From Chloroflexota bacterium (GTDB lineage: Bacteria > Chloroflexota > Anaerolineae > B4-G1 > SLSP01): a DNA stretch of 64,000 nt. Below, one piece after another: positions 2,950 through 54,629 of the stretch. The position numbers and the translations under genes are program-made. The notes beneath the pieces were generated by a model, which had not been told where the DNA came from, searched no databases, and saw only the letters and a program-made list of their open reading frames with translations. The stretch covers positions 20,599 to 84,598 of the forward strand of contig JAIOAX010000022.1 in assembly GCA_019873645.1 (NCBI GenBank). Direction: 5' to 3'. Position 1 is the stretch's first letter, and each line of letters begins with the position of its first letter.

Positions 2950-4314
2950 ATGAATAAACGTCTATATGGAGTGCTGATTGCAGTCTTGTTGGCGGTCGGC
3001 CTGGTTGTGGGGATCCAGGCCGCCGTGGGAGAGCCGTGGATAGGCGCTCAACCTCCGCTGAACCTCTCCCATTCCCAAGATGTGGAGGATGAAGCCAATC
3101 TAGCGGTGGGCACCGGTGGGCGCGTGGCGGCGATCTGGACAAGCAAGGCCAAGCCCGGCGTCTTCCTGCGGCAGGCTCAGGATGGCGTGTGGGAGACGGG
3201 AGTTATTACGCTGGCCTCCGGGCAGGCGGCCTGGTATCCGGCAGTGGCCTATTCGGGAACGCAAGTCATTGCCGCCTGGGCGCAAGGTGCGGCGCGCTAC
3301 CCACGTCATCAAGTGCCCCGCGCCGTGATGCAGCGTGACGTAGGGCTTCCGCAGGCGCAGACGATTATTACACCGGTCTACGGCAACATCGAGATCAGTT
3401 TGGTGATTGCGCCGACGGGGATGCACATGCTCTTTGCGGCTGCGGCGATGACTCAGACGGCGCAACGTTTTGAATGGGACCTGTATTACACGCATCGCTG
3501 TCTGACCGAGACAACCTGGGCGGCCCCAACCATCATCATCACCCATGCGCAGGTCATCCCGGTGCGGACGCCTAATACGACGGCGGGGGTCTGGGAGCCG
3601 CAGTTAGCCGTAAATCATGAGGGCACGCAACTCAGCGTTGTGTGGTCTCAGGAACATACGGAAACCCCGTCTCTGCCGACCGAAACTGTGCCTTTTACCC
3701 ACACCATCTGGTATGTTTCCGGTACCTGGCAAGCGGGGAGCGTGACCTGGGCCGCGCCCCGGCAAGTTTCACCGCCGACACAGCACCATGCCGTCCGCCC
3801 TGACGTGGCCGTAGATACAGCCGGGAAAGCGCATATTGTATGGACGGAATTGATTCCCAATGCCGAGGGCAGCATTGTCTATGCCGCCGAGCAGCATATT
3901 AACTATCTTCAGCCTGGCGCTCCTGCACCGGTCAGAATCAGCGGCGAGGCCGTCCGCGTGAATAACAACAAGCCGACCTGGGCCACGGCGGCCTTGGCGC
4001 TCAGCGGTAGCCGCATGTGCGTCGCCTGGCATGGATTTTACGGACCGGCGGAGATACAACCCCCGGCAGAAATCTACATGCGTTGCTCGAAAGATACGGG
4101 CAAGTCCTGGCAGTCCATCATCAACGTCTCGGCAAGTACGGCGAAACTTTCAATCTTTCCGGCGGCGGCACTGGATGGGGAAGGTCACACGCATGTTGTC
4201 TGGACAGAGTTCCGGCTTGTAGACAATTGGTGGGTGCCTGACGATCTTTACTATCGCGTCGGTACATCCGAAATTAAACAGGTCTTCCTGCCGGTGGTGC
4301 TTCGGCAAAGCTAG
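2950..4314 (+). CDS. BNR/Asp-box repeat beta-propeller protein with an N-terminal membrane anchor
   Basis: I place the start at ATG 2950 (MNKRLYGVLIAVLLAVGLVVG signal/anchor), 2 nt after the upstream stop. Recurrent xxVWT/VWS strands and the Asp-box SKDTGKSW. The longer 2782 start overlaps the previous gene. Confidence 0.7.
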   Translation: MNKRLYGVLIAVLLAVGLVVGIQAAVGEPWIGAQPPLNLSHSQDVEDEANLAVGTGGRVAAIWTSKAKPGVFLRQAQDGVWETGVITLASGQAAWYPAVAYSGTQVIAAWAQGAARYPRHQVPRAVMQRDVGLPQAQTIITPVYGNIEISLVIAPTGMHMLFAAAAMTQTAQRFEWDLYYTHRCLTETTWAAPTIIITHAQVIPVRTPNTTAGVWEPQLAVNHEGTQLSVVWSQEHTETPSLPTETVPFTHTIWYVSGTWQAGSVTWAAPRQVSPPTQHHAVRPDVAVDTAGKAHIVWTELIPNAEGSIVYAAEQHINYLQPGAPAPVRISGEAVRVNNNKPTWATAALALSGSRMCVAWHGFYGPAEIQPPAEIYMRCSKDTGKSWQSIINVSASTAKLSIFPAAALDGEGHTHVVWTEFRLVDNWWVPDDLYYRVGTSEIKQVFLPVVLRQS

Positions 4315-5474: not shown

Positions 5475-5502
5475 TATAGCCCCGCTAATGAAAATGGGCG
5501 CA

Positions 5503-5535
5503 GGACTATTCGACTAACGACTATCAGACTATTTT
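5503..5535. repeat. GACTAT-word tandem leader repeat (paralog at 13645-13685)
   Basis: GGACTATTCGACTAACGACTATCAGACTATTTTT lies immediately 5' of SD AAGGAGG. Confidence 0.7.
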
Positions 5536-5553
5536 TGTTAAAGGAGGTTTGTG

Positions 5554-6840
5554 ATGAGAAAAGAACGTGGACAGGCGATTGTGATTTTGGCTTTTGCCTT
5601 GATTGCTCTGGCGGCCTTCGCCGGTTTGGCGATTGACGGCGGCCGCCTTTATACAGCACGACGACAGTCGCAGAATACTGCCGATGCGGTGGCCATGGCC
5701 GGCACCCGCATGTTAGGGCAATTCATCGCCAATTGTACAGATGTCACGCCGCTGGCTGCGGATAACGCCATCACGCTGGAAATGGTCAAACTTGCGCGCG
5801 CCAATGGTGTGGATCCGCAGGCCGAAAACGCCAAACTGGAGGGCTGGTATGTGGATAAGAACGAGACCCCGCTGGGGCGCGTGGGATGGGGACTCGGCGT
5901 GCCCAACGGCGCGACCGGCATCCGGGCGCGGCTGACCACGACCGACACAACGACTTTCCTCAAGATCGTGGGGCAGCGCTACATCGTCGCGCCCGGCGAG
6001 GCGACCGCGATGACCGGGCCGATCCGGCAATTCGGTGGCGGCATCATCCCGATCGGCGTCCCCTTGCAGGTCATTCAAGCTCTGGAGCCGGGTGAGACTT
6101 TTTATGTGATGGAGAAAAACAACAGATGGGGGGGCGGGGTCTTTTGCCGTGATCCCAATGGCGTCGAATGTATCGGCGATGATCCGGAAAACGCCAATGC
6201 GCATCGCGGGTGGTTGAACCTGAACTACATCTACAACACCGAACATCGCACCGCCAACGATCCACTGAATCGTTCCTTTGAACAAAATGTGCCCAACAGA
6301 CCCTGCGGCAGCAATCCCGCCCAATCTGTTGATGATGGCCTGCAAGGTTGGGCCGGCGAGGACAAAAACAATGATGGCCAGGCCGATTGTCCCTACCCCT
6401 TCCCGATTATTGCCGGAACGCCCAACGCCGTTGATGGCGACTTCATCCACGGCGACCCCGGCGCACGCGAGTCCTCGCTGATGGATGTGAAGGAAACCTA
6501 CGGGGGGACAATTGCCTATGTCCCCATCTTCGACTACATCTATATGAGCGATTACATGGCCGCAAACTTCCAGGCGCCGGAGAATCCGGTACCGGATGGC
6601 AGCCTGAGCGGTTCACACTGGCCTCGCGCCGGCGGAGGGGGGCATGCCTTCCTTTACCACATTGTCGGCTTTGCTGCTGTACTACTCGATGAAAATTCGC
6701 CCAAACACACGCTCGCAGGTCAATTCCAAGGTGCAGTTGTTGGCGAAGGCGCCATTACACCGGGGAGTGGATTTAACAGCGGTGGCGGCGGCGGTGGTTC
6801 GTGTCAGCTCGGCCTCGTCGGCATACAGCTTTGGCGTTAG
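5554..6840 (+). CDS. TadG-like (Flp pilus assembly, TadE/G N-terminal) protein, paralog 1
   Basis: N-terminus RKERGQAIVILAFALIALAAFAGLAIDGGRLY..QNTADAVAMAG is the TadG-like anchor. Shared C-terminal motif VGEGAITPGSGFNSGGGGGGSCQLG..QLWR. Confidence 0.75.
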   Translation: MRKERGQAIVILAFALIALAAFAGLAIDGGRLYTARRQSQNTADAVAMAGTRMLGQFIANCTDVTPLAADNAITLEMVKLARANGVDPQAENAKLEGWYVDKNETPLGRVGWGLGVPNGATGIRARLTTTDTTTFLKIVGQRYIVAPGEATAMTGPIRQFGGGIIPIGVPLQVIQALEPGETFYVMEKNNRWGGGVFCRDPNGVECIGDDPENANAHRGWLNLNYIYNTEHRTANDPLNRSFEQNVPNRPCGSNPAQSVDDGLQGWAGEDKNNDGQADCPYPFPIIAGTPNAVDGDFIHGDPGARESSLMDVKETYGGTIAYVPIFDYIYMSDYMAANFQAPENPVPDGSLSGSHWPRAGGGGHAFLYHIVGFAAVLLDENSPKHTLAGQFQGAVVGEGAITPGSGFNSGGGGGGSCQLGLVGIQLWR

Positions 6841-8136: not shown

Positions 8137-8145
8137 CCGCTTTTT

Positions 8146-8330
8146 GACAGGATTAACAGGATGTTCAGGATAAAATCCTGTTAATCCTGTCCCTATCTCG
8201 TATGGTGTCGACATCTCTAAAGTAGGAGTTACGCACTGCGCCATTTTCTGACAGGGATTAACAGGATTTTCAGGATTAAAGAAGGCTTTGTAGGAGCTTT
8301 TTCATCTTGTCAATCCTGTGAATCCTGTCA
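8146..8330. repeat. ACAGGAT-word repeats forming hairpins (terminator-like after TadG-like 2)
   Basis: GACAGGATTAACAGGAT (8146-8162) pairs perfectly with ATCCTGTTAATCCTGTC (8175-8191). A second imperfect inverted pair lies at 8248-8276 / 8305-8330. Confidence 0.6.
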
Positions 8331-8362
8331 AAAGAAACGAACCGCGTAACTACGTCTAAAAA

Positions 8363-9667: not shown

Positions 9668-9686
9668 GGCGTAAAACGTAAAAACG

Positions 9687-9727
9687 TAAAACGTGAAACG
9701 TAAAGGAGACTTACGTTTCACGTTTTA
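9687..9727 (+). terminator. Hairpin terminator built from ACGT-word repeats
   Basis: TAAAACGTGAAACGTAA / TTACGTTTCACGTTTTA form a 17-bp perfect stem with a 7-nt loop, followed by TGTTTTAT, 20 nt after the stop. Confidence 0.6.
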
Positions 9728-9803
9728 TGTTTTATAATAGACTCTCATAATCAAAGAAGCCTATTGGAGATGCCCCATCACCGAGGATGAAAATCTTAAC
9801 CGC

Positions 9804-11656: not shown

Positions 11657-11789
11657 CGGAGAATTTTAACCGCGAATCACGCGAATTTTTGCAGGTTTTT
11701 AAGCATCAACGGATTTCTGATTACCCATCCGTTTCATCCGTTAAATCCGTTGATATTTTTTCCTGGATTACGAGGACGAAAGAACAATC

Positions 11790-13610: not shown

Positions 13611-13644
13611 CGCGGGCGCAACGTTCGCACAATGAAACGACAAG

Positions 13645-13685
13645 ACTGAAGACTATCCGACTAAAAACTATCTGACTATTTTTTC
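13645..13685. repeat. GACTAT-word tandem leader repeat (paralog of 5503-5535)
   Basis: GACTGAAGACTATCCGACTAAAAACTATCTGACTATTTTTT lies directly 5' of SD GAGGAGG for kamA. Confidence 0.7.
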
Positions 13686-13703
13686 GAGGAGGAAATCAAG
13701 GAG

Positions 13704-15044
13704 ATGGAAGAACAGCAGTTTGGTTTAGAACTAGAAGAGCCTCCTGGCCCAGGAGGGCAACGTCGCTATTGGCAAACTGTTCCCCCTGAACAGTGGAACG
13801 ACTGGCGTTGGCAACTGGCCCACCGCCTGAGCACCGTAGAGGATTTTTCCCACATTTTGCACTTAACCCCCGACGAGATCGCCGGCCTTTCTGCGCCTGA
13901 GCGCTTTCGCGTCGAGGTCACGCCGTACTTCGCCAGCCTGATGGACCCGGACGATCCCCATTGTCCCATCCGTCGGCAGGTCATCCCGACCGCTCAAGAG
14001 CTGGTCCCGTTTGACGCCGAAATGGCCGATTCGCTTGGCGAGGATGCCCATTCGCCGGTTGCCGGCCTGGTGCACCGTTACCCCGACCGCGTCCTGATGC
14101 TGTTGACGACGCAGTGCGCCAGCTATTGCCGTTTCTGCACGCGCAGCCGCCTCGTCGGCGATAGCCATGTGATGTTCAATTCGGCTTCCTATGAACAGCA
14201 GTTGGACTACATCGCCGGGACGCCGGAAATCCGCGACGTGCTGCTCTCCGGCGGCGATCCGTTGACGCTGCCGCAGAATGTGCTGGAACGCATCCTGTTC
14301 CGCCTGCGCGCCATCCCCCACGTGGAGGTGATCCGCATCGGTTCACGGGTGCCCGTCTTCCTGCCGCAGCGCATCACGCCAGAATTGACGGCCATGCTGT
14401 CCAAGTATCATCCTTTGTGGATGAACATTCACTTCAACCATCCCAAAGAAATCACGCCGGAAGTGGAGCAGGCGTTGGCGCGGTTGGCGAACGCCGGCAT
14501 CCCTCTCGGCAGCCAAACCGTGTTGCTTGCGGGGATCAATGACTGTCCGAATATCATGATGGCGCTCGTGCACAAGCTGGTGAAGAACCGTGTGCGCCCC
14601 TATTATCTCTATCAATGTGACCTTGTCCACGGCGCGGGGCACTTCCGCACACCCGTGGCAAAGGGGCTGGAGATTATGGAGTCGCTGCGCGGTCATACGT
14701 CCGGCTTCGCCATTCCTACGTATGTGATTGACGCGCCGGAGGGCGGCGGCAAGGTGCCCATCCTCCCCAACTACCTCCTGAGCATGTCCGACAGCAAAGT
14801 CATCATCCGCAACTACGAGGGCTTCATCACCGCCTACGCGCAGCCGACGGATTACCGGAGTCACGATCCGGCGACCTGCCCTTATTGCCAAAATCATCGC
14901 GACGAGGCCGGGCAGGAGGGCGTAGCGGGATTGCTTGCGGGGCAGCGCCGCGAGATCGCACCGCAGCACTGGCATGAGACGCATGCCCGTCTCCCACAAA
15001 CGCCGTCGCCCTTTGTTCTGCATCGTGAAATGGTGGAGCGGTAA
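13704..15044 (+). CDS. kamA: Lysine 2,3-aminomutase family radical SAM enzyme
   Basis: The CASYCRFCTRS cluster (CxxxCxxC), the KamA N-terminus WNDWRWQL, and the motifs VTPYFASLMDP, HRYPDRVLML and SGGDPL. Confidence 0.9.
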   Translation: MEEQQFGLELEEPPGPGGQRRYWQTVPPEQWNDWRWQLAHRLSTVEDFSHILHLTPDEIAGLSAPERFRVEVTPYFASLMDPDDPHCPIRRQVIPTAQELVPFDAEMADSLGEDAHSPVAGLVHRYPDRVLMLLTTQCASYCRFCTRSRLVGDSHVMFNSASYEQQLDYIAGTPEIRDVLLSGGDPLTLPQNVLERILFRLRAIPHVEVIRIGSRVPVFLPQRITPELTAMLSKYHPLWMNIHFNHPKEITPEVEQALARLANAGIPLGSQTVLLAGINDCPNIMMALVHKLVKNRVRPYYLYQCDLVHGAGHFRTPVAKGLEIMESLRGHTSGFAIPTYVIDAPEGGGKVPILPNYLLSMSDSKVIIRNYEGFITAYAQPTDYRSHDPATCPYCQNHRDEAGQEGVAGLLAGQRREIAPQHWHETHARLPQTPSPFVLHREMVER

Positions 15045-15045
15045 T

Positions 15046-16128
15046 ATGGCAGGATTGCGTGTGGCTGTGGTTGCCAATCGTAAACACAGCGTCAAAGTGG
15101 AGGCCGGCGCGCCGCCCGACGCGCTGGCCGAATATGACGCCGAAGAGACTGTGCAGGGCATTCAGGAGGCGCTGCGCGCACGCGGCCATGAGCCGTTTTT
15201 CCTGGAGGCCGACGAAACTTTTATAGATACCGTGCGCGAGACGCGGCCCGACATCTGCTTCAACATTGCCGAGGGGCTGCGCGGCGATGCGCGCGAATCA
15301 CACATTCCCGCCGTGCTGGAGATGCTCGCCATCCCCTACACCGGCTCGAAGGTGCTCACGCATGCCATCTCGCTGGACAAGGCGATGACCAAGCGCATCT
15401 GGCGCGACGTGGGCCTGCCGACGGCGCCGTTCCAACGCTTCTGCCGCGCCGATGCGCCGCTGGATGCGCGCCTGAGCTTCCCGCTGTTCGTCAAACCGTC
15501 GCGGGAGGGATCGGGAATGGGGATCAACGCTCGCTCCATCGTCCACGACGAAGCCGAGCTGCGGGCGCAGGTGGATTGGGTGATCCGCACCTATCGGCAA
15601 CCGGCGTTGGTCGAAACGTACCTGCCGGGGCGGGAGTTCACCGTGGGGCTTGTGGGCAACACGCGCCCGCCGGACGCGCCGCGCCGTTCCGAATTCTACG
15701 ATGAACGCGGATTTCACGTCTTCCCGGTGCTGGAGATTGACTCGCAGCGCGGGGCGGTGAAGGGTATTTACAACACGCAAGCGAAATCCTATGCCCTTGA
15801 CGATCCGCTGGCCCCCGGCTATCTGTGTCCGGCGGACATCCCCACCGGGCTGGAGGCCGAGTTGCGCCGGCTCGCCATCGCTGCCTTTGAAGCGTTAGAC
15901 GGGCTGGATGTGGGGCGTGTGGATTTCCGTATGGGGGCAGACGGCGCGCCCTATCTGGTCGAGATCAACACGCTGCCGGGCATCAATCCGCTGGTCAGCG
16001 ACCTGGTCATCGTCTCGCGGGCGGGTGGCGTCGCCTATGAAACCCTGGTCAACGAGATTCTCAACCTGGCCTGCGAGCGTTATGGTCTGCGTTGGAACGT
16101 TGGAACGTTGGAACGTTCAAACGTTTAA
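15046..16128 (+). CDS. ATP-grasp ligase of the D-Ala-D-Ala ligase family
   Basis: ATG 15046 lies 1 nt after the kamA stop. Ddl-like pattern GEDG-equivalent ...IPYTGSKVLTHAISLDKAMTKRIW...FPLFVKPSREGSGMGI...EINTLPG. The longer 14935 start overlaps kamA. Confidence 0.8.
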   Translation: MAGLRVAVVANRKHSVKVEAGAPPDALAEYDAEETVQGIQEALRARGHEPFFLEADETFIDTVRETRPDICFNIAEGLRGDARESHIPAVLEMLAIPYTGSKVLTHAISLDKAMTKRIWRDVGLPTAPFQRFCRADAPLDARLSFPLFVKPSREGSGMGINARSIVHDEAELRAQVDWVIRTYRQPALVETYLPGREFTVGLVGNTRPPDAPRRSEFYDERGFHVFPVLEIDSQRGAVKGIYNTQAKSYALDDPLAPGYLCPADIPTGLEAELRRLAIAAFEALDGLDVGRVDFRMGADGAPYLVEINTLPGINPLVSDLVIVSRAGGVAYETLVNEILNLACERYGLRWNVGTLERSNV

Positions 16129-16131
16129 ACG
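16091..16131. repeat. AACGTT-word tandem repeat (GTTGGAACGTTGGAACGTTGGAACGTTCAAACGTTTAAACG)
   Basis: Degenerate word copies. It encodes the last 12 aa and the stop of the ATP-grasp gene and ends 3 nt before the next start. Confidence 0.75.
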
Positions 16132-16134
16132 CTT

Positions 16135-17172
16135 ATGCACATTGTTTACACCGACCACCATCACGGGCACGCGACGGAAAATCTGATCATCAACGGGCAG
16201 CCCGTCGAATATCTGGAAACGCCGGCCCGCGCGGAAGCCATCCTGGCCGCCGTGCGGGCCGCGCATTTTGGCCCGATCATCCCCCCGACCGATCACGGCC
16301 TTGCGCCGCTTCTGGCCGCGCACACCCCGGACTTTGTGGACTACCTGCGCACGGCTTATGCACAAGGCGCGGCCTATTGTGGGACACCGTGCCCGGTGAT
16401 TGCCGCTCGCAGCGACGTGACTCTGGCGCGCGCGCCGTGCTGTCCCGATGACTTCCCCGGTCGGCGCGACTACTACACCTACGATTACGAAGACCCTATC
16501 CTCGAACATACCTGGGACGCGGCCTACTGGAGCGCCCAATGCGCGCTCACGGCCGCCGATTGTGTCCGCGACGGGGCACGCGTCGCTTACGCTCTGTGCC
16601 GTCCACCGGGACATCACGCCATGCCCGATCAGTACGGCGGCTTCTGCTACCTCAACAATGTCGCCATCGCCGCGCGTGACTTGCAGGCGGACGGCCCGGT
16701 CGCCATCCTGGACCTCGACTACCATCACGGCAACGGCACGCAGGCGATCTTCTATGCCGATCCGGCGGCGCTGTTCTGTTCGCTGCACGCTGATCCCGAC
16801 CTGGCCTATCCGTTCTTTTGGGGGCGCGCCGACGAACGCGGGGCCGGCGCAGGGTGGGGGCTGAATCACAACTGGCCGCTGCCGTTGCACATCGGCGAGG
16901 CGGAGTATCTGGCGGTATTGGATGAGGCCCTGCGCGTTATCGTGGACTTCGCGCCGCGCTACCTGCTTATCTCCCTGGGATTGGACGCGGCGGAAGGCGA
17001 CCTCATCGGCAAGTTCCACATTACTCCCCCGGGTTTCCACATCATCGGGCGACGGATTGCTGCGCTCGATCTCCCCACCGTCATTGTCCAGGAAGGCGGC
17101 TACCGCATCGAGACGCTCGGCGCAAATGCGGTCGCTTTCCTGCGGGCATTTGAAGAAACACCCGCAGTTTAG
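16135..17172 (+). CDS. Histone deacetylase-family (arginase/deacetylase superfamily) amidohydrolase
   Basis: The CRPPGHHA, GFCYLNNVAIA, DLDYHHGNGTQ and QEGGY motifs. Confidence 0.85.
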   Translation: MHIVYTDHHHGHATENLIINGQPVEYLETPARAEAILAAVRAAHFGPIIPPTDHGLAPLLAAHTPDFVDYLRTAYAQGAAYCGTPCPVIAARSDVTLARAPCCPDDFPGRRDYYTYDYEDPILEHTWDAAYWSAQCALTAADCVRDGARVAYALCRPPGHHAMPDQYGGFCYLNNVAIAARDLQADGPVAILDLDYHHGNGTQAIFYADPAALFCSLHADPDLAYPFFWGRADERGAGAGWGLNHNWPLPLHIGEAEYLAVLDEALRVIVDFAPRYLLISLGLDAAEGDLIGKFHITPPGFHIIGRRIAALDLPTVIVQEGGYRIETLGANAVAFLRAFEETPAV

Positions 17173-18312: not shown

Positions 18313-18337
18313 TTTGATCTGTGTGGTTAGTTTTTGT

Positions 18338-18410
18338 CAGCAGATTAAGCAGATGAAGCAGATTTTGGTGTTAATAAATAAAGAATCTGCTTAATCTGCT
18401 CAATCTGCTG
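18338..18410. repeat. CAGCAGATTAAGCAGAT-word long imperfect palindrome between rtcA and rnz
   Basis: The 27-nt arms 18338-18364 and 18384-18410 pair at 25 of 27 positions. The right arm AATCTGCTCAATCTGCTGATTG recurs upstream of the TPR gene, on the minus strand at 29875-29900. Confidence 0.65.
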
Positions 18411-18434
18411 ATTGAAATAGCGTATGGAGCTGGC

Positions 18435-19570: not shown

Positions 19571-19817
19571 GGTGAATAAATTTCCCGGCAACGACAAACC
19601 TGACGGCGGTACAACCATTTATTGACGGATTGAACGGGTTTTTAACTTGTCTCTGGGAGCGGTAACCTGAGTCGGTGCTTACGCCATCATTAACGTTCCA
19701 ACGTGCAAACGTGCAAACGAATTTTCAAGGGAGGTGGATAGCGATAAATGTAGTCAAAAAAACACTTGTTCAATTTCCCGGTCTGTTATTTTTGAAACTA
19801 GAAGGAGGAAATGGACT

Positions 19818-20924
19818 ATGAAACGGAATCTGTGGAAACTCATGGCGTTGTTGTTGATCGTTACCCTGCTGTTGCCTGCGTGCGGCGGCAAGGGAGGGGC
19901 CTCAAAGACTGGCAAGCCCTTCAAGGTTGCTTTCGTCTACATCGGCCCGCCCGGCGACCTGGGGTGGACCTACGAGCACGACCGGGGCCGCAAGATGCTC
20001 CAGGAACACTTCGGAGATAAGGTCGAGACCACTTACATCGAGAACGTCGCCGAAGGCCCCGATGCGGCGCGGGTGATCCGCCAGTATGCCCAGGAAGGCT
20101 ACGATATGATCTTCGCCACCTCCTATGGGTATATGGATTACATGTACGAAGTGGCGCAGGAATTCCCGAAGGTCAAATTTGAGCATTGCTCCGGCTACAA
20201 GACGCTAGACAATATGGCGAACTACTTTGGGCGGATCGAGCAGCCGCGTTATCTCTCCGGCATTGTCGCCGGCAAGATGACCAAGAACGGTAACATCGGC
20301 TACGTGGCGGCGTTCCCTATCCCCGAAGTGGTGCGCGGGATCAATGCCTTCACGCTGGGGGTGCGCTCGGTGAACCCGAATGCAAAGGTGACTGTGGTGT
20401 GGACCAACACCTGGTACGACCCGGTGAAGGAACGCGAGGCCGCTGTGGCACTGCTGGACGCCGGTGCGGACATCATCGCACAGCACCAGGATACCACCGA
20501 GCCGCAGAAGGCCGCGCAGGAACGCGGTGCGTTGAGCATCGGCTATGACTCCGACATGCGCGCGTTCGTCGGCGATACGGTACTCACCAGTCCGATCTGG
20601 AACTGGGGGCAGTATTACATCCAGACGGTGCAGGATGCTATGGACGGCAAGTGGAAGTCGCATGCCTATTGGGGCGGCATGGCCGATGATGTCGTCCGGC
20701 TGGCCGATTTCAGCCCTAAGGTACCGCAGGACGTGCGCGACCTTGTCGAGGCGGCCAAGAAGGAAATCCTGAAGAACAAGGACAAGGAATTCGTATTCTG
20801 CGGGCCGATCAAGGACCAGGCCGGCAATCAGGTGGTAGCCGCCGGCGAGTGTTTGAGCGACGAAGCGCAGTTGAGCATGCAATTCTTCGTCGAGGGTGTC
20901 GTCGGGACGATTCCTAGCCAGTAA
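19818..20924 (+). CDS. BMP-family (PnrA/Med-like) ABC transporter substrate-binding lipoprotein
   Basis: Lipoprotein signal MKRNLWKLMALLLIVTLLLPACGG. SD AGGAGGA sits 7 nt upstream. BMP pattern FKVAFVYIGPPGDLGWTYEHD..., GYVAAFPIPEV. Confidence 0.85.
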   Translation: MKRNLWKLMALLLIVTLLLPACGGKGGASKTGKPFKVAFVYIGPPGDLGWTYEHDRGRKMLQEHFGDKVETTYIENVAEGPDAARVIRQYAQEGYDMIFATSYGYMDYMYEVAQEFPKVKFEHCSGYKTLDNMANYFGRIEQPRYLSGIVAGKMTKNGNIGYVAAFPIPEVVRGINAFTLGVRSVNPNAKVTVVWTNTWYDPVKEREAAVALLDAGADIIAQHQDTTEPQKAAQERGALSIGYDSDMRAFVGDTVLTSPIWNWGQYYIQTVQDAMDGKWKSHAYWGGMADDVVRLADFSPKVPQDVRDLVEAAKKEILKNKDKEFVFCGPIKDQAGNQVVAAGECLSDEAQLSMQFFVEGVVGTIPSQ

Positions 20925-20992: not shown

Positions 20993-22531
20993 ATGCTGAT
21001 GAGCGAGCCGACAACCTCATCTCCTATTCTGGAAATGCGCGGCATCACCAAACGGTTCCCCGGTGTGCTGGCGAACGACCACGCCGATTTGGAACTTTAC
21101 CCCGGCGAGGTATTGGCGCTGCTCGGCGAAAACGGCGCCGGTAAAACCACGCTTATGAACGTCCTTGTGGGTCTCTACCGGCCTGATGAGGGTGAAATCT
21201 TCGTGCATGGGCAGCGTGTTGAGATTCACTCGCCCCGCGACGCGGCAGCGCTGGGGATTGGTATGGTGCACCAGAACTTTATGCTTGTCCCGACCATGAC
21301 GGTTGCCGAAAACATCGTCTTAGGGATGAGCAACCTGCCTTTTGTGCCGCGAATGGCTGAGATAGCGCGGCGTATCCGCGCTATCTCCCAACGTTACAAC
21401 CTCGAAGTGGACCCCAATGCCTACATCTGGCAGTTGAGCGTGGGCGAGCAGCAACGTGTGGAAATCCTCAAGTTGTTGTATCGCGGCGCGGAAATCCTGA
21501 TTTTGGACGAACCGACCGCCGTCTTGACACCGCAGGAATCCCACGAGTTGGGGCGCATCCTCAAGCGTATGACCGACGAAGGCAAATCCGCCGTCTTTAT
21601 CACCCATAAGATGGAAGAGGTGATGGAGTTTTCGCAGTGGGTACGGGTGATGCGGGCAGGGCGGGTCGTCGCCGTCAAAAAGACGGCCGAGACCAACCCG
21701 CAAGAGCTGGCACGGTTGATGGTGGGGCGTGAGGTGTTGTTCCGCCTGGAAAAGAACGTCTGCACGCCGGGCGATGTGGTGCTCGAACTGCGCGATGTCC
21801 ACGCGGAGAACGACAAGGGGTTGCCGGCGTTGCGCGGTGTGTCCTTTACGATCCACGGTGGTGAAATTCTGGGCATTGCTGGGGTGGCCGGCAACGGGCA
21901 ACGCGAGCTGGTTGAAGTTATCACCGGCCTGCGTAAGGCCACGCGGGGCAAAGTGCTCATCAACGGTGAAGACCGCACGAACAAGCCGCCGCTGGACATC
22001 ATCCGTTCTGGGGTCAGCCATATTCCCGCTGACCGCATTGGCATGGGCGCAGTGGCCGATATGGCCGTCGCGGACAATATCGCCATGAAAGGTTATCGCC
22101 AGCCGCCGTTGACAGATCATGGCATCTTGCATCCCCGGCGCATCCTGGAGTTGGCGCAGCGGATGATCACTGCCTTTCGTATTGCGACGCCCACGCCGCA
22201 GACGCACATTAAGTTCCTCTCCGGCGGCAACATCCAGAAGGTCATCCTGGCGCGCGAAATTGAAGCCTGCGCCGGGCTACTGGTGGCGGCTTATCCCTCG
22301 CGCGGCCTGGATGTAGGCGCGACCGAGGCGGTGCGGCGGCGACTGCTGGAACAGCGCGACGCCGGGCGCGCCGTGCTGCTGGTCTCCGAGGATTTAGAGG
22401 AATTGTTGACCATTGCAGATCGCATCGCCGTGCTGTTCGAGGGGCGCGTGATGGGCATCCTTCCCGCCGCTACCGCCGACATCGAAACCCTGGGACTGAT
22501 GATGGCCGGGGCGCAGGAGGTTGGGGAGTAG
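20993..22531 (+). CDS. ABC transporter ATP-binding protein with duplicated ATPase domains
   Basis: Walker A GENGAGKTT, signature LSVGEQQRVEI and Walker B ILILDEP. The second domain has GVAGNGQ and LSGGNIQKV. I place the start after the hairpin, at ATG 20993. Confidence 0.85.
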   Translation: MLMSEPTTSSPILEMRGITKRFPGVLANDHADLELYPGEVLALLGENGAGKTTLMNVLVGLYRPDEGEIFVHGQRVEIHSPRDAAALGIGMVHQNFMLVPTMTVAENIVLGMSNLPFVPRMAEIARRIRAISQRYNLEVDPNAYIWQLSVGEQQRVEILKLLYRGAEILILDEPTAVLTPQESHELGRILKRMTDEGKSAVFITHKMEEVMEFSQWVRVMRAGRVVAVKKTAETNPQELARLMVGREVLFRLEKNVCTPGDVVLELRDVHAENDKGLPALRGVSFTIHGGEILGIAGVAGNGQRELVEVITGLRKATRGKVLINGEDRTNKPPLDIIRSGVSHIPADRIGMGAVADMAVADNIAMKGYRQPPLTDHGILHPRRILELAQRMITAFRIATPTPQTHIKFLSGGNIQKVILAREIEACAGLLVAAYPSRGLDVGATEAVRRRLLEQRDAGRAVLLVSEDLEELLTIADRIAVLFEGRVMGILPAATADIETLGLMMAGAQEVGE

Positions 22532-22622
22532 GGATTGGGGAATAGGGAATAGGGATTAGGGATTGGGGAATTAGGGGATTGGGAGATTGGCTGATCGCTG
22601 ATCGCTGAGGGCCGAGGGCTTT
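22532..22622. repeat. GGGATTGGGGAATAGGG / CTGATCGCTGA word repeats
   Basis: Degenerate tandem words fill the whole ATPase-permease intergenic region. Confidence 0.7.
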
Positions 22623-25180: not shown

Positions 25181-25254
25181 GGGTTATGGGGTGAGGGTTG
25201 TGGGGGATTCGCCATTCACCCATTCTCTGATTCGCTGATTCGCTGGAGGTGCGT

Positions 25255-26109: not shown

Positions 26110-26154
26110 ACGTTGGCCCGTTTGAACGTTCAAACGCTTGCTTAAGGAGAACTG

Positions 26155-35101: not shown

Positions 35102-36061
35102 ATGGGTTATAAGACGCTTTTGATTTACAATCCGACGGCCGGGCCATGGGATATGACACGCACGCTCAAACGCCTGGCCGATTATCTGCAAACCACCGGT
35201 TGGCAAATCGAACTGGTGCAAACTCAGCAGGCCGGTGATGCGACCCGCTATGCCCGTCAGGCAGCCGCGCAGCACACCGACATCGTATTGGTCGCCGGTG
35301 GGGATGGTACGATCAACGAAGCGGTCAACGGCGTCGCCGGTACGAATACGGTCTTAGGTCTCGTCCCTGTAGGTACCGGCAACATCCTGGCGCACCAACT
35401 GCACATGCCGATCCTGACGCTGACGGCGCCCTTGTACGTGCGCAAAGTGGGAGAGGCGCTGTGTGGAAGCCGCGTGCAGCGGGTGGATGTGGGTGTCGCC
35501 AACGGACGGTACTTTGTCTGCTGGGCCGGCCTGGGCCTCGACGCCGAAATCACGATGCACATTGAGCCGCGCCCACGCTACGCCAAGCGCTTGCGCACGC
35601 TCTCCTACATTATTGCCGGATTTGCCGTCGCCTCCGAGTTTCGCGGGGTGCGCTCGCGCATCGTGATTGAGGGACGTACCTTTCGCACCCGTGCCTTGAT
35701 GGCGTTGGCGAGCAACATTCAACTTTATGCTGCTTTCTTCAACATTGCGCCCCACGCGCGTATGGACGATGGCTTGCTGGACATTTTTGTCTTCAAGGGC
35801 CTGGGATTCCCATACATTATGCGCCATCTGCTGCATCTTTTCAGCGGCACCTACCGCCATGATCCCAAAGTGATGCATGCTCTGGCACGCACGATGCAGG
35901 TGCAGACGATCCCCACGGTCGCCGTGCACCTGGATGGCGATCCATTTGGGGACACGCCGGCCACCATCGGCATTGAACCGGGGAAGCTGCGCCTGTTGAT
36001 TCCCCCACAGGCGCCGGCAAACCTGTTCAGCAAACCGCCGGAACATTTGTCAACGGATTAA
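35102..36061 (+). CDS. Diacylglycerol-kinase-family lipid kinase (YegS/BmrU-like)
   Basis: LLIYNPTAG, VLVAGGDGTINEAVNG and LGLVPVGTGN. Confidence 0.85.
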   Translation: MGYKTLLIYNPTAGPWDMTRTLKRLADYLQTTGWQIELVQTQQAGDATRYARQAAAQHTDIVLVAGGDGTINEAVNGVAGTNTVLGLVPVGTGNILAHQLHMPILTLTAPLYVRKVGEALCGSRVQRVDVGVANGRYFVCWAGLGLDAEITMHIEPRPRYAKRLRTLSYIIAGFAVASEFRGVRSRIVIEGRTFRTRALMALASNIQLYAAFFNIAPHARMDDGLLDIFVFKGLGFPYIMRHLLHLFSGTYRHDPKVMHALARTMQVQTIPTVAVHLDGDPFGDTPATIGIEPGKLRLLIPPQAPANLFSKPPEHLSTD

Positions 36062-36182
36062 ACGGATGAAACGGATTTTAAATTTACCCTTTATGATCTG
36101 TGACGTATTTCGGCAACTTTTACTACCATAACGTTCTAACCTGCCAACGTTCCAACGATTCTCCATTATAAGGAGGTTGACT

Positions 36183-37088
36183 ATGCAATCATTGCTGGAC
36201 TGGGGTATCGCACTGATTTTGTGGCTTCAACGGTTTCATCCGGCGCTGGATTGGCCCTTCAGGGCGTTTACGTTCCTCGGCGACGAGCTGTTCTATTTGC
36301 TCTTTCTGCCTTTCGTCTATTGGTGTCTGGACCGTCGCACCGGAGCGCGGGTGACATTGCTATTTCTCGTCTCTGCCTATGTGAACGCGATAGCGAAAGA
36401 GTTCTTCAATCAGCCGCGCCCGGCGCAGTATAGCTCGCAGGTGTGGGCTTACTCCGACGTGGGCGGTTCTGCCGGACTGCCCAGTGGTCACACCCAAAAC
36501 ACCCTGGCCGTCTGGGGCTACCTGGCGGCAAAAGTCCGCCGCACCTGGCTGTGGATTTTGGCCGGTGTGCTGATCATCTGTGTACCGCTATCGCGGCTGT
36601 ACCTGGGCGTCCACTTCCCGCATGACTTGCTCGGCGGGTACGTTCTCGGCGCGCTGCTGCTTTTCGTTTACCTGCGCTGGGGCGAAGGTGGCGAACGGTG
36701 GATCGCCAAACAATCTCCGGCGCTTCGAGCGGCGCTCGTAGCCCTTATCTCGATTCCCTTGATGCTGATCTTCCCCACCGAGGATGGCGTGACCGGCGGC
36801 GCGACGCTGTTGGGGATGGGTTTGGGCTTTGTGGTCCAGGCGCGTTGGATCGGCTTTGAGGTTGAGGGGGAACTGTGGAAACGGGGCGCGCGCTATGCCC
36901 TGGGTGCAGCCGTGATGATCGGCCTGTGGGCAGGATTGCGAGCAGCTTTTTCCGGTTTGGAGCCGGCGCTGCTTTTCCGTTTCATTCGCTATACGCTGAT
37001 GGGATTCTGGGGGGGCGCGGGCGGCCCGTGGGTCTTCGTGCGCCTGGGACTGGCGCCGGGGTACGCTCAGAAGCAAGCGTCACGTTAA
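36183..37088 (+). CDS. PAP2-family phosphatase
   Basis: KEFFNQPRP, PSGH and SRLYLGVHFPHD are the three PAP2 motifs. SD AGGAGG sits 6 nt upstream of ATG 36183. Confidence 0.85.
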   Translation: MQSLLDWGIALILWLQRFHPALDWPFRAFTFLGDELFYLLFLPFVYWCLDRRTGARVTLLFLVSAYVNAIAKEFFNQPRPAQYSSQVWAYSDVGGSAGLPSGHTQNTLAVWGYLAAKVRRTWLWILAGVLIICVPLSRLYLGVHFPHDLLGGYVLGALLLFVYLRWGEGGERWIAKQSPALRAALVALISIPLMLIFPTEDGVTGGATLLGMGLGFVVQARWIGFEVEGELWKRGARYALGAAVMIGLWAGLRAAFSGLEPALLFRFIRYTLMGFWGGAGGPWVFVRLGLAPGYAQKQASR

Positions 37089-37117
37089 TCCGTTTCATCC
37101 GTTAAATTTGTTGACGC

Positions 37118-42527: not shown

Positions 42528-42620
42528 GATTGACCGCTCCTCAGAAAGTAGTCTGATAGTCCACTTTACTTTGATTATAGAACAAAGAACCGCCGTTGCA
42601 AGGCATCCCCCCAGACGGGG

Positions 42621-47780: not shown

Positions 47781-47874
47781 CTATCCCGGCTCCCCACTTT
47801 CCTGTTTTTCGTTATTATGTTATCATATACCCATACGTTTCGGTCACTATTCTATATCGAAAGGGGAGAGAACA

Positions 47875-48390
47875 ATGAACCTGAAACAGCATTTACGGAT
47901 TTTGAGTGTCCTGATTGTGATTGCGGCGGTGTGGTTGACCGCCTGTGGCGGCGGGGCTCAGACTCCTACCGAGAGCAGTCCCGTCACCGAAAGCGGCAGC
48001 GCGGCCACGGAAGAGGCCCCCGCAGCCACGCAGGAAACAACGGCGGAAGAACCTGCTGAACCTGCTGCGCCGGCAGAACCGACTGCCACGCCGGAACCCA
48101 AAGACTTGTTCCCGGACATTCTCGTGGTGCATCCCGATGCCTTCAACTTTGAAGTTACCGTAGCAACCAGCACCTACGTTTATGTGGTGCCGATGATGGT
48201 TGCCGATACTGTGGCTTACCTGGAGGCCGAACTAAAAGCCATTGGATGGGAAGAACTGGGAAAACCCACGGTGATGGGGCATCTGGCGACGCTCAACCTG
48301 AAACGCGAGGGGTATCGCCTGACCGTCAGCATGCAAGATAACGAACGCACGCAAACAACGCGCGTACAGATGCTTCTTATGAAGCAGTAA
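47875..48390 (+). CDS. Lipoprotein, hypothetical
   Basis: Lipobox VWLTAC|GG with an acidic A/E/T-rich linker. Confidence 0.55.
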   Translation: MNLKQHLRILSVLIVIAAVWLTACGGGAQTPTESSPVTESGSAATEEAPAATQETTAEEPAEPAAPAEPTATPEPKDLFPDILVVHPDAFNFEVTVATSTYVYVVPMMVADTVAYLEAELKAIGWEELGKPTVMGHLATLNLKREGYRLTVSMQDNERTQTTRVQMLLMKQ

Positions 48391-48621
48391 CCTGCCGTAC
48401 TATTCCGAAAACGGCCAGCAGACATCATGAGCGACGCGCTCAACCCAGCATGAAAATGCATGTCAACGGATTAAGCGGATTTGAACGGATTAGCTTTCAA
48501 TTGTCGCATAAACTGCTTAATCCGCCAAGTATTTTCGGAATAGATTAAGCAGATTTATAGAGGATTTAAACGTTCCAACGTGCTAACTTGTCAACGTGTA
48601 AACGATTTTTAGGGAGGTTGA

Positions 48622-48972
48622 GTGGAGAGTTTAGAACTGGCGCATCGTATTGCTGAAATCATTGTGGATAAGCAAGGAGAAGACATTCTGATCCTCGATT
48701 TACAGGCCGTGACGACGTTCACCGATTACTTTGTCATCTGTTCCGGCACCAGCCGAAGACAACTGGATGCGCTCCAGCATACGTTACGCGAAGAGTTGAA
48801 GAAGGGAGAAGAACCCGTTATTCCCCTGAGTGTGGAAGGGGAGCCGGATTCCGGGTGGATTTTGATGGACTATAGCAGCGTCATTGTGCATTTGTTTGAT
48901 CCAGAAGTACGCAAATTCTATAATCTTGAGGAACTTTGGAAGAAGGGGCGGGTTGTTGCCCACATTCAGTGA
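48622..48972 (+). CDS. rsfS: Ribosome silencing factor
   Basis: GEDILILDL, TDYFVICSGTSRRQ and WILMDYSSVIVHLF..R.FYNLEELW. GTG start with SD AGGGAGG. Confidence 0.9.
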   Translation: MESLELAHRIAEIIVDKQGEDILILDLQAVTTFTDYFVICSGTSRRQLDALQHTLREELKKGEEPVIPLSVEGEPDSGWILMDYSSVIVHLFDPEVRKFYNLEELWKKGRVVAHIQ

Positions 48973-49019
48973 GGTCTTACCGGCTGGAATAGGTATTCCG
49001 AAAAGTTTGTGTCACAAAC

Positions 49020-49045
49020 AACGGCGACCAATGATGGTCGCCGTT
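49020..49045 (+). terminator. Hairpin after rsfS
   Basis: AACGGCGACCA / TGGTCGCCGTT form an 11-bp stem. There is no strong T-run. Confidence 0.4.
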
Positions 49046-49120
49046 GCGTTATAGGCCGATTATGACGAATTTGAATCCTGCCATGTTTACGGTTTACCGT
49101 CATCCAGGAAAGTAAATAGA

Positions 49121-53804: not shown

Positions 53805-54548
53805 TTACACCTCACATGGCGGCTCGCCAGCGACCGACTTGATGAGCGCAGCGGCGGCCTCGACCTGTGCTTCTGTTCCACTGATGCCAATCCACGCCGA
53901 CCCTTCTGCGCCGAAGATGCCGCCAGCGGCAATGAGGATGGCCTCTGCGCCGGTGAGCAGTTGAATGGCATCCAGCTCGGTGAAAATCTCGCCCGGCAAA
54001 GGCATCAGGCGCGGACCCTCGGTATCCGGCGCGTTCACCCGCAGTGCCAAGGTGTGAATGTCCTCAAAGACGCGCTTCTCCAGGCCGATAGGCACGATCA
54101 GCCGCACCCGCCGCCCGATGACCGCCGGCACGATTGCCATCACCGTGCCACCCTGCGGGTGGCCGATCTGCACGGCGGCCTGCCCGTAGGGATCGAAGGC
54201 GTTGCCGCCCTTGAGCACCACATCGCCGGCCTTGAGGCTTTCGGCCACATCGAAGACGGTTTTGCCGGGCTGCCACTGCCCGTCCACGATGACCACGTCG
54301 CCGGTCAGCTCGGCCTGGGGCAGTTTGGCGCCGTGGGCCACGGTCACGCCCCGCCGGAAGCCCACGCGCGAGAACTTCTCGGCCTGTCCGATGGCCGTGA
54401 GGATTTCCTCGGCCACATAGCCGTTGGTCGTCCCGGCGACGATGAGCAGGGTGCCCTTTTGCAGCACGCGCCGGATGTCGGGGTGCTGGGCCATCCCTTT
54501 GCCGATCAAGCGTTTTCCCATTGCGGGTGTCAGGTTGAATTGTTTCAT
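53805..54548 (-). CDS. Conserved-looking hypothetical protein (247 aa)
   Basis: I chose ATG 54548 because it is preceded by SD AAGGAG and an AACGTT-word leader. The 54791 start would translate the leader and a gene fragment. Confidence 0.55.
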   Translation of the reverse strand: MKQFNLTPAMGKRLIGKGMAQHPDIRRVLQKGTLLIVAGTTNGYVAEEILTAIGQAEKFSRVGFRRGVTVAHGAKLPQAELTGDVVIVDGQWQPGKTVFDVAESLKAGDVVLKGGNAFDPYGQAAVQIGHPQGGTVMAIVPAVIGRRVRLIVPIGLEKRVFEDIHTLALRVNAPDTEGPRLMPLPGEIFTELDAIQLLTGAEAILIAAGGIFGAEGSAWIGISGTEAQVEAAAALIKSVAGEPPCEV

Positions 54549-54629
54549 AGATGCGCTCCTTTTTGTGAAGTCGTTGGAACGCTGGAACGTTTGAACGTTC
54601 AAGCATTCCAACGTTTGTATACTACTCCA

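Follow-up and report, generated by a model that had tools for sequence, protein, structure and literature searches.

Short-word repeat arrays 5' of Shine-Dalgarno sites in a clade of Chloroflexota: dispersed modules of two structural classes

Short tandem repeats adjacent to start codons, among them the short tandemly repeated repetitive (STRR) sequences, the TAACTGA repeats and the G-rich heptamers, have been on record for decades, with no agreed function or origin. Work in E. coli has described A/U-rich translational enhancers and S1-dependent standby sites upstream of the Shine-Dalgarno (SD) sequence, and mycobacterial interspersed repetitive units (MIRU) are units of 46-101 bp with small open reading frames (ORFs) that overlap the flanking stop and start codons. 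TAACTGA direct repeats, known from marine Beggiatoaceae, some Cyanobacteria and Bacteroidetes, lie a short way upstream of start codons (MacGregor 2015, PMC4679880). STRR heptamers are found in cyanobacteria, and GGGAATC / GGGGAYT heptamer repeats in Xanthomonas and Nostoc (Rehm et al. 2015, PMC4692102). The TAACTGA repeats are the nearest described phenomenon, followed by STRR and the Xanthomonas/Nostoc heptamers, to the arrays reported here from a 64-kb stretch of contig JAIOAX010000022.1 (the window), part of a hot-spring metagenome-assembled genome of the Chloroflexota with ~59% G+C; the closest relatives of its rnz and rsfS are Anaerolineae.

A preliminary description, made from the letters of the window alone, had noted degenerate tandem words placed immediately 5' of the SD sites of unrelated genes, flagging the site at 48568-48617 before rsfS. 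We compared four sources of sequence: the window, 80 Chloroflexota loci around rnz, syntenic rsfS loci of graded divergence, and 47 metagenomic loci found with one word pattern. The window, L001 and L081-L134 are together termed the clade loci (576 kb of the immediate clade). The arrays form a clade-restricted population of modules, each of 3-10 tandem copies of a 7-10-nt word, and fall into two classes: hairpin-forming inverted arrays, and unstructured direct arrays just 5' of the SD.

The rsfS leader and its counterparts in relatives

The flagged array (48569-48605, + strand) consists of five degenerate 8-nt AACGTNNN words, AACGTTCC AACGTGCT AACTTGTC AACGTGTA AACGA, with a period of 8 and a G content of 16%, and ends 16 nt before the GTG of rsfS (PF02410, 6e-33). 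Behind it, in 48606-48624, come TTTTT (48606-48610), the SD AGGGAGG (48611-48617), the spacer TTGA and the GTG at 48622. The leader (48560-48621) folds with -7.9 kcal/mol and z +1.25, 183 of 200 shuffles folding at least as well. Rfam gives no match to the flagged region at the gathering score, nor at E <= 1, and the + strand holds no terminator-like site in 47800-49100 and no promoter-like site in the rsfS leader.

In relatives the slot of this array is kept and its words are exchanged. Where the window has AACGT words, L081 and L084 (95% and 85% at the amino acid (aa) level) have GACTA words and L086 (84% aa) has no array, and from GGAGG onward the leader is conserved, GGAGGTTG(A/G)GTGGAGAG being common to all three and the window. 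The spacer between the second and third M42 peptidase genes has no array in the window, an AACG array with a T-run in L081, and GACTA-type arrays in L084 and L086. L001 (94% aa in rnz) keeps the rnz leader hairpin with its 3 + 3 words, but these are CACGAATCT instead of CAGCAGATT. In the same relative, GAGTGAA/CTTACTC inverted arrays stand in place of GGGATTG in the ABC ATPase-to-permease spacer, and a CGTAAAA hairpin occupies the BMP-to-ATPase junction, where the window has 20 plain bases. The region 25181-25245 is the only spacer in which L001 retains the words of the window, with a differing copy number. Genuine signals are conserved base for base, for example the TTGACA-17-TATAAT promoter abutting the cofD ATG, that of the 171-aa gene upstream of rsfS together with its leader, and the promoter of the M42 operon. 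Since the slot is kept, the words are exchanged and the real promoters are fixed, the arrays appear not to be gene-specific cis-regulatory sequences, and the filler of the slot is exchangeable. In the comparison of orthologous regions proposed in the preliminary description, neither word nor array proved to be conserved; an array of gene-specific binding sites, one of the explanations offered there, is unlikely on the same ground.

The flagged array is the last of three repeat modules that compose the 231-nt spacer from the conserved 171-aa gene to rsfS. One of the others is an inverted pair of AATCTGCT-like words. The remaining one is a high-copy dispersed repeat, recognized from contig depth (48416-48512, + strand), with a AACGGATT word array (48462-48491) as its core. 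In the source metagenome, the summed contig depth over 48468-48481 is ~6000, against 19-20 in the single-copy flanks, and many contigs of depth 20 match 48416-48512 and diverge on both sides. The module also shows presence/absence variation, an allele without 48448-48529 being found.

Several side observations concern this spacer and its surroundings. The high-copy module is enclosed by a perfect inverted repeat of 12 nt (CTATTCCGAAAA / TTTTCGGAATAG; 48400-48546), and in one contig of a second hot-spring sample 48447 is followed by AGCATGAAAATGCGCGC and then by 48530. The motif A(T/C)GAAAATG follows a C-rich run just 5' of the AACGGATT array (48449) and of GACTA arrays (5487 and the heads of the long elements described below), and may be a shared 'head' linking different word families. 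In three relatives the conserved TTGACAC-17-TATAAT box of cofD ends 7-8 nt before the ATG, with no SD (L081 10352-10498; L084 10427-10585; L086 10352-10520), so that the cofD mRNA of these relatives looks leaderless from its sequence; in the window the cofD neighbourhood is replaced after rsfS. The gap-to-pgk spacer keeps its small hairpin between L084 (13002-13059, CGGCAAAGCGGCAAA/TGCCGCTTTGCCG) and L086 (12938-12994, ATCAGCAAATCGGC/GCCGATTTGCTGAT), with both arms differing.

Dispersed modules in the window and the clade

Arrays were scored as tandem repeats of period 7-10 with at least 3 copies and at least 80% matches, and the 41 window spacers of at least 25 nt were compared with 300 dinucleotide-preserving shuffles. 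Nine of the 41 contain an array by this strict measure, against 0.04 expected, and the array-covered bases number 363 versus 0.8 +/- 4.4 in the shuffles. Such arrays occupy 5.2% of the non-coding and 0.31% of the coding bases of the window. TRF recovers the same arrays, with intergenic periods of 7-10. A relaxed count gives 11 spacers, an exact 6-mer recurrence test is passed by 6, and words are visible by eye in ~18. Every coordinate given in the preliminary description does contain the words described, but its statement that nearly every intergenic spacer is built in this manner was too strong. Arrays are concentrated between co-directional genes, most divergent (promoter) and convergent spacers being without them, and at least 12 word families occur within the 64 kb.

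Across the clade loci there are 83 distinct non-coding arrays, and 15 more overlap our coding calls. Periods are 7 (45 arrays), 8 (17), 9 (16) and 10 (5), and 29 of the 83 are self-palindromic or have an inverted partner within 110 nt. Array density per 10 kb is 8.9 in L001, 7.2 in L005, 4.0 in both L023 and L052, and 2.7 in the window. Most of the 80 rnz loci are without an array. A few separate lineages have dense arrays, and the vocabulary differs from one lineage to the next; the habit is thus patchy within the Chloroflexota.

The arrays are dispersed, multi-copy modules and not products of local slippage: the same series of words, down to the variable letters that separate them, is met again at unlinked loci and in other genomes and habitats. 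For instance, GTCAACGGATTAAACGGATGAAACGGATT occurs four times in the window and again in L091, L093 and L126; CCACGAATCTGCACGAATTT is shared by L001, L095 and L099, and AATCTGCTTAATCTGCT by the window, L106 and L114. The CGTAAAA hairpin module is found in the window, L001, L086 and L129, at differing loci. Depth at arrays is 10-300 times that of single-copy sequence, and assembler contigs break there; in 5-25 kb, every array-bearing bin of 667 nt has a depth spike of 5-15x. Different word families are also seen joined to each other in contigs from other parts of the genome. Word number differs among copies, both orthologous and dispersed. No word-number polymorphism was seen between co-occurring strains, in which the only difference was a 1-nt indel at 9680. 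Slippage peculiar to this lineage, as considered in the preliminary description, is therefore half right: whole modules recur at high copy number, which points to copy-and-paste first, with slippage only modulating word number.

Some copies take other forms. The GACTA module is also found as a tandem satellite with a 62-nt unit (CAACAGTCCGGTAGTCGGGTGCTGCAATGAGACTATCTGACTAACGACTATCAGACTATTCT) in at least 4 repeats and no gene after it, in L115 (6369-6699) and L122 (2262-2344). In L091 (~4000-4240), a 64-nt AACGGATT/AATCCGTT hairpin module has on either side a direct copy of a 48-nt segment (GGAGTCTCCATGTGGCAAGCCACGCCAACGAGGACGGCAAATTGGTGA), which is also present, in diverged form, in L109 and L114; the segment may be one more dispersed leader module, or else a target duplication of unusual length.

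The two classes are separated by their folding (z-scores against shuffled sequence) and by their position. The inverted arrays usually lie just after stop codons. In the rnz leader, an inverted pair of AATCTGCT arrays of 3 + 3 words (18336-18413, + strand) makes a long hairpin (18330-18420, -44.7 kcal/mol, z -9.8). CGTAAAA / TTTTACG inverted arrays (9668-9735, + strand) form one just after a stop codon (9668-9740, -31.3 kcal/mol, z -7.9). Two AATCCTGT-word hairpins, 8146-8190 and 8249-8330 within 8143-8331 (+ strand), fold with -27.5 kcal/mol, z -7.5 (8137-8195) and -37.9 kcal/mol, z -6.1 (8245-8335). A AACGGATT module copy lies at 11725-11753 (fold of 11700-11760, -13.9 kcal/mol, z -4.3), and further copies, inverted and ~1 kb apart (36049-36078 and 37086-37112, spanning 36049-37112), flank the PAP2 gene, which also has an AACGT leader array. 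Direct arrays are made of non-pairing words, are G-poor, less folded than shuffles and in sense orientation, and stand directly 5' of the U-run and SD. AACGT direct arrays are found before the SD of the PAP2 gene (36130-36158, + strand; fold of 36125-36185, z -0.6) and at 19692-19720 (+ strand; fold of 19685-19740, z +0.45), where AATTTT and a GGGAGG follow that is not a functional ribosome-binding site (RBS). Of GACTA type are the module at 5478-5535 (+ strand), with a partial head (AGCCCCGCTAATGAAAATGGGCGCAG), the words GACTATTC GACTAAC GACTATCA GACTATTTT, an SD and the start of a Tad-like gene (fold of 5495-5556, z +0.65), and the direct array with T-run before the SD of a lysine-2,3-aminomutase-like gene (13645-13685, + strand; fold of 13640-13706, z +1.75). 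A site missing from the preliminary description holds two GACTA words (GACTATCAGACTA, in gene orientation; 42549-42562, - strand), then CTTTCTGAGGAG and the ATG of a histidine kinase gene; it adjoins the SD in the same orientation as the other GACTA sites. Heptamer arrays, ~9 copies of GGGATTG/GGGAATA and 3 of GCTGATC (22529-22612, + strand), fill the ABC ATPase-to-permease spacer, and GGGTTRT and GATTCGCT arrays (25181-25245, + strand) run into an SD.

The six AACGT sites, formerly grouped as a single arrangement of words, SD and start, divide between the classes. Those at 48569, 19692 and 36130 are unstructured direct arrays. The palindromic arrays at 16090-16131 (+ strand) and 54572-54617 (- strand, upstream of the SD of ORF 53805-54548) are strong hairpins (16085-16137, -21.6 kcal/mol, z -4.6; 54545-54622, - strand, -28.6 kcal/mol, z -5.2), and the site at 26110 contains a small palindrome. 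The array given as 16091 does not precede an SD: it sits in the 3' end of the upstream ORF, as a hairpin that abuts the ATG of the HDAC gene, which has no SD. The GGGAGG after 19692, taken earlier for the SD of the BMP leader, is likewise reassigned, the RBS of BMP being the AGGAGG before ATG 19818. The words of the other families are where they were placed, but many are members of inverted pairs (18336/18384, 9670/9711, 8143/8175, 8250/8313 and 36049/37086).

At two of these sites additional details were noted. The upstream ORF takes its C-terminal 13 residues (LRWNVGTLERSNV) from the array at 16090-16128, and its stop lies 6 nt before the HDAC ATG; the arrangement suggests that HDAC may be translationally coupled through the hairpin. 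From 19727 to 19817, the GGGAGG without a usable start is followed by an 85-nt segment with its own T-run and AGGAGG, then the BMP ATG at 19818; a minimal ORF (ATG-TAG, 19759-19764) lies inside this segment, and 19692-19817 as a whole looks like two stacked leader modules. A role of the arrays as arms of small four-helix-bundle (IVP) gene cassettes finds no support within the window, where 0 of 10 small or unassigned ORFs match such a family; long-range inverted array pairs enclose ordinary genes or nothing.

Oriented GACTA arrays in transcribed leaders

For a sample blind to genes, metagenomes were scanned with CTAACGACTATNAGACTATTT, a stretch common to the window copy at 5504 and the rsfS copies of L081 and L084, which yielded 47 loci with 44 distinct GACTA copies. 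In 34 of the 44, an SD, a start codon and an ORF follow within 45 nt downstream (mostly 10-19 nt), while only 1 of 44 has them on the opposite side. Most of the ten exceptions belong to tandem 62-nt satellites, lie at the end of a contig, or have another module behind them. Twenty proteins encoded downstream are unrelated in function, among them MFS transporters, an aldo-keto reductase, a glycosyltransferase, a radical-SAM enzyme and ferredoxins, and also a GH3 hydrolase, DegV, response regulators and kinases.

Word orientation was also counted in 327 non-redundant leaders of the clade loci. Sense to antisense counts are 146:10 for GACTA, 27:7 for ATTCGC, 25:7 for GCTGAT, 12:3 for AACGTG and 9:4 for CAAACG, and 13:11 for ATCCGT, 18:15 for ATCTGC, 11:9 for GGGATT, 11:13 for ATCCTG, 7:9 for CGTAAA and 10:15 for TCAACG. 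The fixed geometry of words, SD and start reported in the preliminary description accordingly holds for GACTA, on both counts, and for GCTGAT and ATTCGC, but not for most other families, which are near 1:1 and hairpin-forming; a lack of orientation bias, the outcome said there to speak against the idea, is seen in those hairpin families and not in GACTA.

Thirty-three GACTA leaders (-60 to +3) have a mean z of +0.80, with 29 of 33 above 0, and a composition of A 32%, U 28%, C 23% and G 16%; 80 control leaders have a mean z of -0.03 and 25% G. SD-proximal arrays are thus less structured than shuffles, in agreement with the earlier view that terminators alone do not explain them. Runs of TTTT are enriched 2-3-fold at -25 to -16 in leaders without GACTA too, which makes the U-run part of a recurrent RBS design that the arrays abut.

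In a close relative the arrays lie inside 5' untranslated region (5'UTR) or intercistronic RNA. The evidence comes from two activated-sludge metatranscriptomes (X10 and X11) holding an L081-type relative. An RNA-derived X10 contig of 3309 nt, with zero differences to the L081 type, spans part of cofD, rsfS, the whole spacer with its GACTA element, and the 171-aa gene; it ends ~32 nt upstream of the start of the 171-aa gene, beside its conserved promoter. In X11, depth is 7.6 at the 171-aa gene and 2 at the GACTA leader and rsfS, and the gap between them falls over the hairpin of the spacer. At the locus L088, an X11 contig begins at 1217, ~16 nt past a TATAAT (1196-1201), and reaches an MFS gene by way of an AACGT array and the long GACTA element. 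At the locus L133, contigs break within the element and summed depth goes up 16-fold, as expected of a repeat present in many transcripts. Such placement of the words fits the translation-initiation or standby-site element that was among the possibilities first listed. Just upstream of the MFS promoter, L088 752-1148 has a metatranscriptome depth of ~39.5 against 4.9 (~8x) and may be a highly expressed small gene or RNA.

Twelve GACTA copies share a conserved form of ~90 nt, comprising TGTAACCGAACC, a short stem (CCTGYG ... CRCAGG) around ACAGCCCCGATAATGAAAATG, the GACTA words, a T-run and the SD. All 12 begin directly after an SD-like pentamer (AGGAG, AAGAG, AGGAA and similar), which varies from copy to copy as genuine SDs do, the element itself being ~90% conserved; the pentamer is usually preceded by another array or hairpin with a T-run. 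Two of the 12 have flanking direct repeats, CAAAGGAG (L133) and ATTTGCAGAG (L123), of 8 and 10 nt. Excision of the element from L081 in silico leaves a leader end, TTTTTGAAGGGG-TTGAGTG, like the TTTTTAGGGAGGTTGAGTG of the window. These flanks would fit insertion next to an SD. Leaders show no surplus of sense SD-like motifs upstream of the functional SD (GGAG 50:50 and AGGAG 14:13, sense:antisense), a parity by which 'stacked vestigial SDs' are rejected as a general leader grammar and the observation is limited to the 12 long forms. Given this parity, insertion at an SD is kept only as a speculative reading, in which the GACTA element, and by analogy the AACGT module, might be a portable RBS cassette of ~90 nt, non-autonomous and inserting immediately 3' of an existing SD. 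Such a cassette, which we consider improbable, would duplicate the U-run and SD or bring its own, leaving the gene translated, and would overwrite or stack leaders genome-wide; if real, this would be a mobile element aimed at the very signal for translation initiation.

Other readings of the element head were rejected. The head stem is weak (9 pairs, -5.5 kcal/mol and one compensatory pair in RNAalifold), and an Rfam search with the L109 element returned only sub-threshold generic hairpin matches, which speaks against a structured RNA and, together with the unrelated downstream genes, against a known cis-regulatory RNA such as a riboswitch or leader. The GATAAT in the head has no -35 at 16-18 nt by eye, and RNA reads through it, so it was not taken for a promoter. 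A mini-ORF (MKMIAGLSD) stays open but lacks an SD, and its variable codons are the stem positions.

Explanations and comparison with known systems

Our preferred reading, to which we give a little less than even credence, is that these are interchangeable copy-and-paste leader modules which keep the RBS open, a function that we infer. Direct arrays would act generically, not gene-specifically, offering the 30S subunit an A/U-rich single-stranded landing or standby segment, probably through protein S1, and, in a genome of ~59% G+C, shielding the SD from hairpin modules nearby. The inverted, hairpin-forming arrays would serve as partial terminators or RNA-stabilising stem-loops between cistrons. 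Modules would spread by copy-and-paste, and replication slippage would then alter word number. Several points weigh against this reading. The GACTA core is alike at 36 of 41 nt between the rsfS leaders of L081 and L084, the rest of the spacer being unalignable, and conservation of this kind would fit sequence-specific recognition or homogenisation of copies better than a generic spacer. L086 translates rsfS from the same SD without an array, so there the array would be dispensable. Orientation evidence for the flagged AACGT family is suggestive but thin, consisting of six window sites and a few in relatives, with words that are part-palindromic (CAAACG 9:4, TCAACG 10:15). As the GACTA copies share descent, the structure statistics apply to the family as such and do not count as independent events. 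The RNA evidence consists of assembled contigs from a relative, in which DNA carry-over is possible, and gene calls in the loci are our own heuristics.

A rival that we hold possible, if unlikely, is that of selfish miniature non-autonomous mobile elements without host function, the orientation and SD adjacency of which would follow from target choice and survivorship: elements would insert next to, or duplicate, the U-run and SD, and only insertions restoring an SD before the start would persist. High copy number, contig breaks at arrays and presence/absence at identical flanks are what it predicts, and the hairpin-class arrays resemble the ends of MITEs (miniature inverted-repeat transposable elements) or repetitive extragenic palindromic (REP) sequences. 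The long GACTA forms add to this their start directly after a variable SD-like pentamer in 12 of 12 cases, the flanking direct repeats of two copies (8 and 10 nt), and the L081 excision that regenerates a window-like leader end. However, the GACTA element has no terminal inverted repeats, clear flanking repeats are limited to 2 of 12, SD-like strings resemble each other anyway, and sense SD-like motifs are in no general excess upstream (GGAG 50:50). In addition, orthologous GACTA arrays persist over 85-95% aa divergence (at rsfS and at a cytidylate-kinase-like gene), suggesting retention. The reading of the arrays as binding sites for clade-specific RNA-binding proteins (S1 OB-folds, Csp, CsrA-like) exerting global post-transcriptional control, with the word as the contact unit, strikes us as rather unlikely. 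It is consistent with arrays that are strictly oriented and transcribed, with a conserved 5-nt core (GACTA, AACGT) between which 2-3 letters vary, and with the conservation of orthologous arrays in spacers that are not conserved around them; the same was proposed for start-proximal heptamers (MacGregor 2015, PMC4679880). Nevertheless, at least 12 word families in 64 kb, most without orientation bias, would be hard to reconcile with it, as would their exchange at the same site, the relative that has none, and downstream genes that share no function, nor did the analysis yield a candidate protein.

Neutral microsatellites arising by in-place slippage in AT-rich spacers, adjacent to the SD because arrays fill short spacers, seem very improbable as a full account. 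Word number does vary: L113 has three GACTATCC, L126 a duplication of 16 nt, heptamer arrays run to 9-11 units, and the window and L001 differ in their ATTCGC arrays. The intergenic arrays have periods of 7-10, and an excess of heptamer simple sequence repeats is known in bacteria (PMC4692102). This origin does not account for identical multi-word orders, inter-word letters included, at unlinked loci and across genomes, or for the conserved non-repeat head attached to GACTA arrays; nor would it be expected to give a 34:1 orientation bias, and no word-number polymorphism is seen between co-occurring strains. DNA-level signals, that is promoters, intrinsic terminators, or operator and iteron arrays for ribbon-helix-helix-type repressors, are scarcely credible. 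Hairpin-class arrays followed by T-rich arms do look terminator-like, and tandem 7-8-bp direct or inverted boxes resemble MetJ boxes and omega heptads. Strict strand orientation is not expected of operator arrays, however, RNA contigs read through the arrays, and nearby TTGACA-17-TATAAT promoters are conserved where the arrays are not. The flagged array in particular was rejected as an intrinsic terminator, having no + strand terminator-like site in 47800-49100 and no stable stem or hairpin, with the homologous spacer read through, and as a MetJ/omega-type operator, there being no promoter-like site on the + strand of the rsfS leader, no regulon, an intercistronic and transcribed position and a strictly oriented strand.

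Such arrays have practical consequences. They break short-read assemblies of Anaerolineae and lead the calling of start codons and operons astray; examples are the vestigial SD at 19727 and the C-terminus encoded by the array at 16090-16128. The clade is an unusually clean system, with several families per SD-proximal slot, dozens of oriented copies, an attached head and arrays in mRNA leaders. Two old questions about start-adjacent repeats become directly testable in it: whether they are ribosome landing pads or sites for specific proteins, and whether they are made on the spot or travel as units.

Among known systems, the TAACTGA repeats share with these arrays 2-6 tandem short words in sense orientation, a few nt upstream of starts, before unrelated genes and at many sites per genome. 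The GACTA copies (34/44 versus 1/44, with unrelated genes) and the flagged array (5 words, 16 nt before the GTG) conform to this type. A role in translation, through S1, Csp or CsrA, has been put forward. One heptamer dominates there, and canonical RBSs are rare in the repeat spacers. Here, by contrast, at least 12 families of 7-10 nt (AACGTNNN, GACTAYNN and others) occur, a strong AGGAGG-type SD is always kept after a U-run, families swap at the same site, one has a non-repeat 'head', and many are hairpin-forming inverted pairs. The STRR and G-rich heptamers are likewise intergenic tandem short units in many dispersed copies, rare in coding DNA, partly in inverted pairs, and variable in length and sequence between close relatives; the GGGATTG/GGGAATA array of the window at 22529 is of the G-rich heptamer type. 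They belong to another phylum. The flagged unit is of 8 nt, units of 8-9 nt are as common here as those of 7, and the units differ from the cyanobacterial consensus ones. The Xanthomonas repeats lie nearer the 3' end of the upstream ORF and on either strand, unlike GACTA and AACGT, which lie at the 5' end of the downstream gene, GACTA in strict orientation.

The hairpin-class arrays resemble REP, REPIN and MITE sequences in being dispersed, high-copy, strongly folding and intergenic, with presence varying between relatives, but their arms are tandem words, the inter-word letters of which are often not complementary. The hairpin feature itself belongs to the other families (z -4 to -10), the flagged array having none (z +1.25). 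In the manner of S1-type enhancers, the direct arrays are A/U-rich, G-poor, unstructured RNA with a U-run directly 5' of the SD, present in the transcript of a relative, and would have a comparable activity; those enhancers are unique sequences, whereas these are repeated, word-built, portable modules. MIRU are similar in being oriented repeats between operon genes, compatible with expression of the downstream cistron, and differ in that the units here are of 7-10 nt and contain no coupling ORF. To these systems the present clade adds two SD-proximal families swapped at one orthologous slot, a 34:1 orientation test on an unbiased sample, a conserved GACTA head with an SD-like flank, and transcript evidence.

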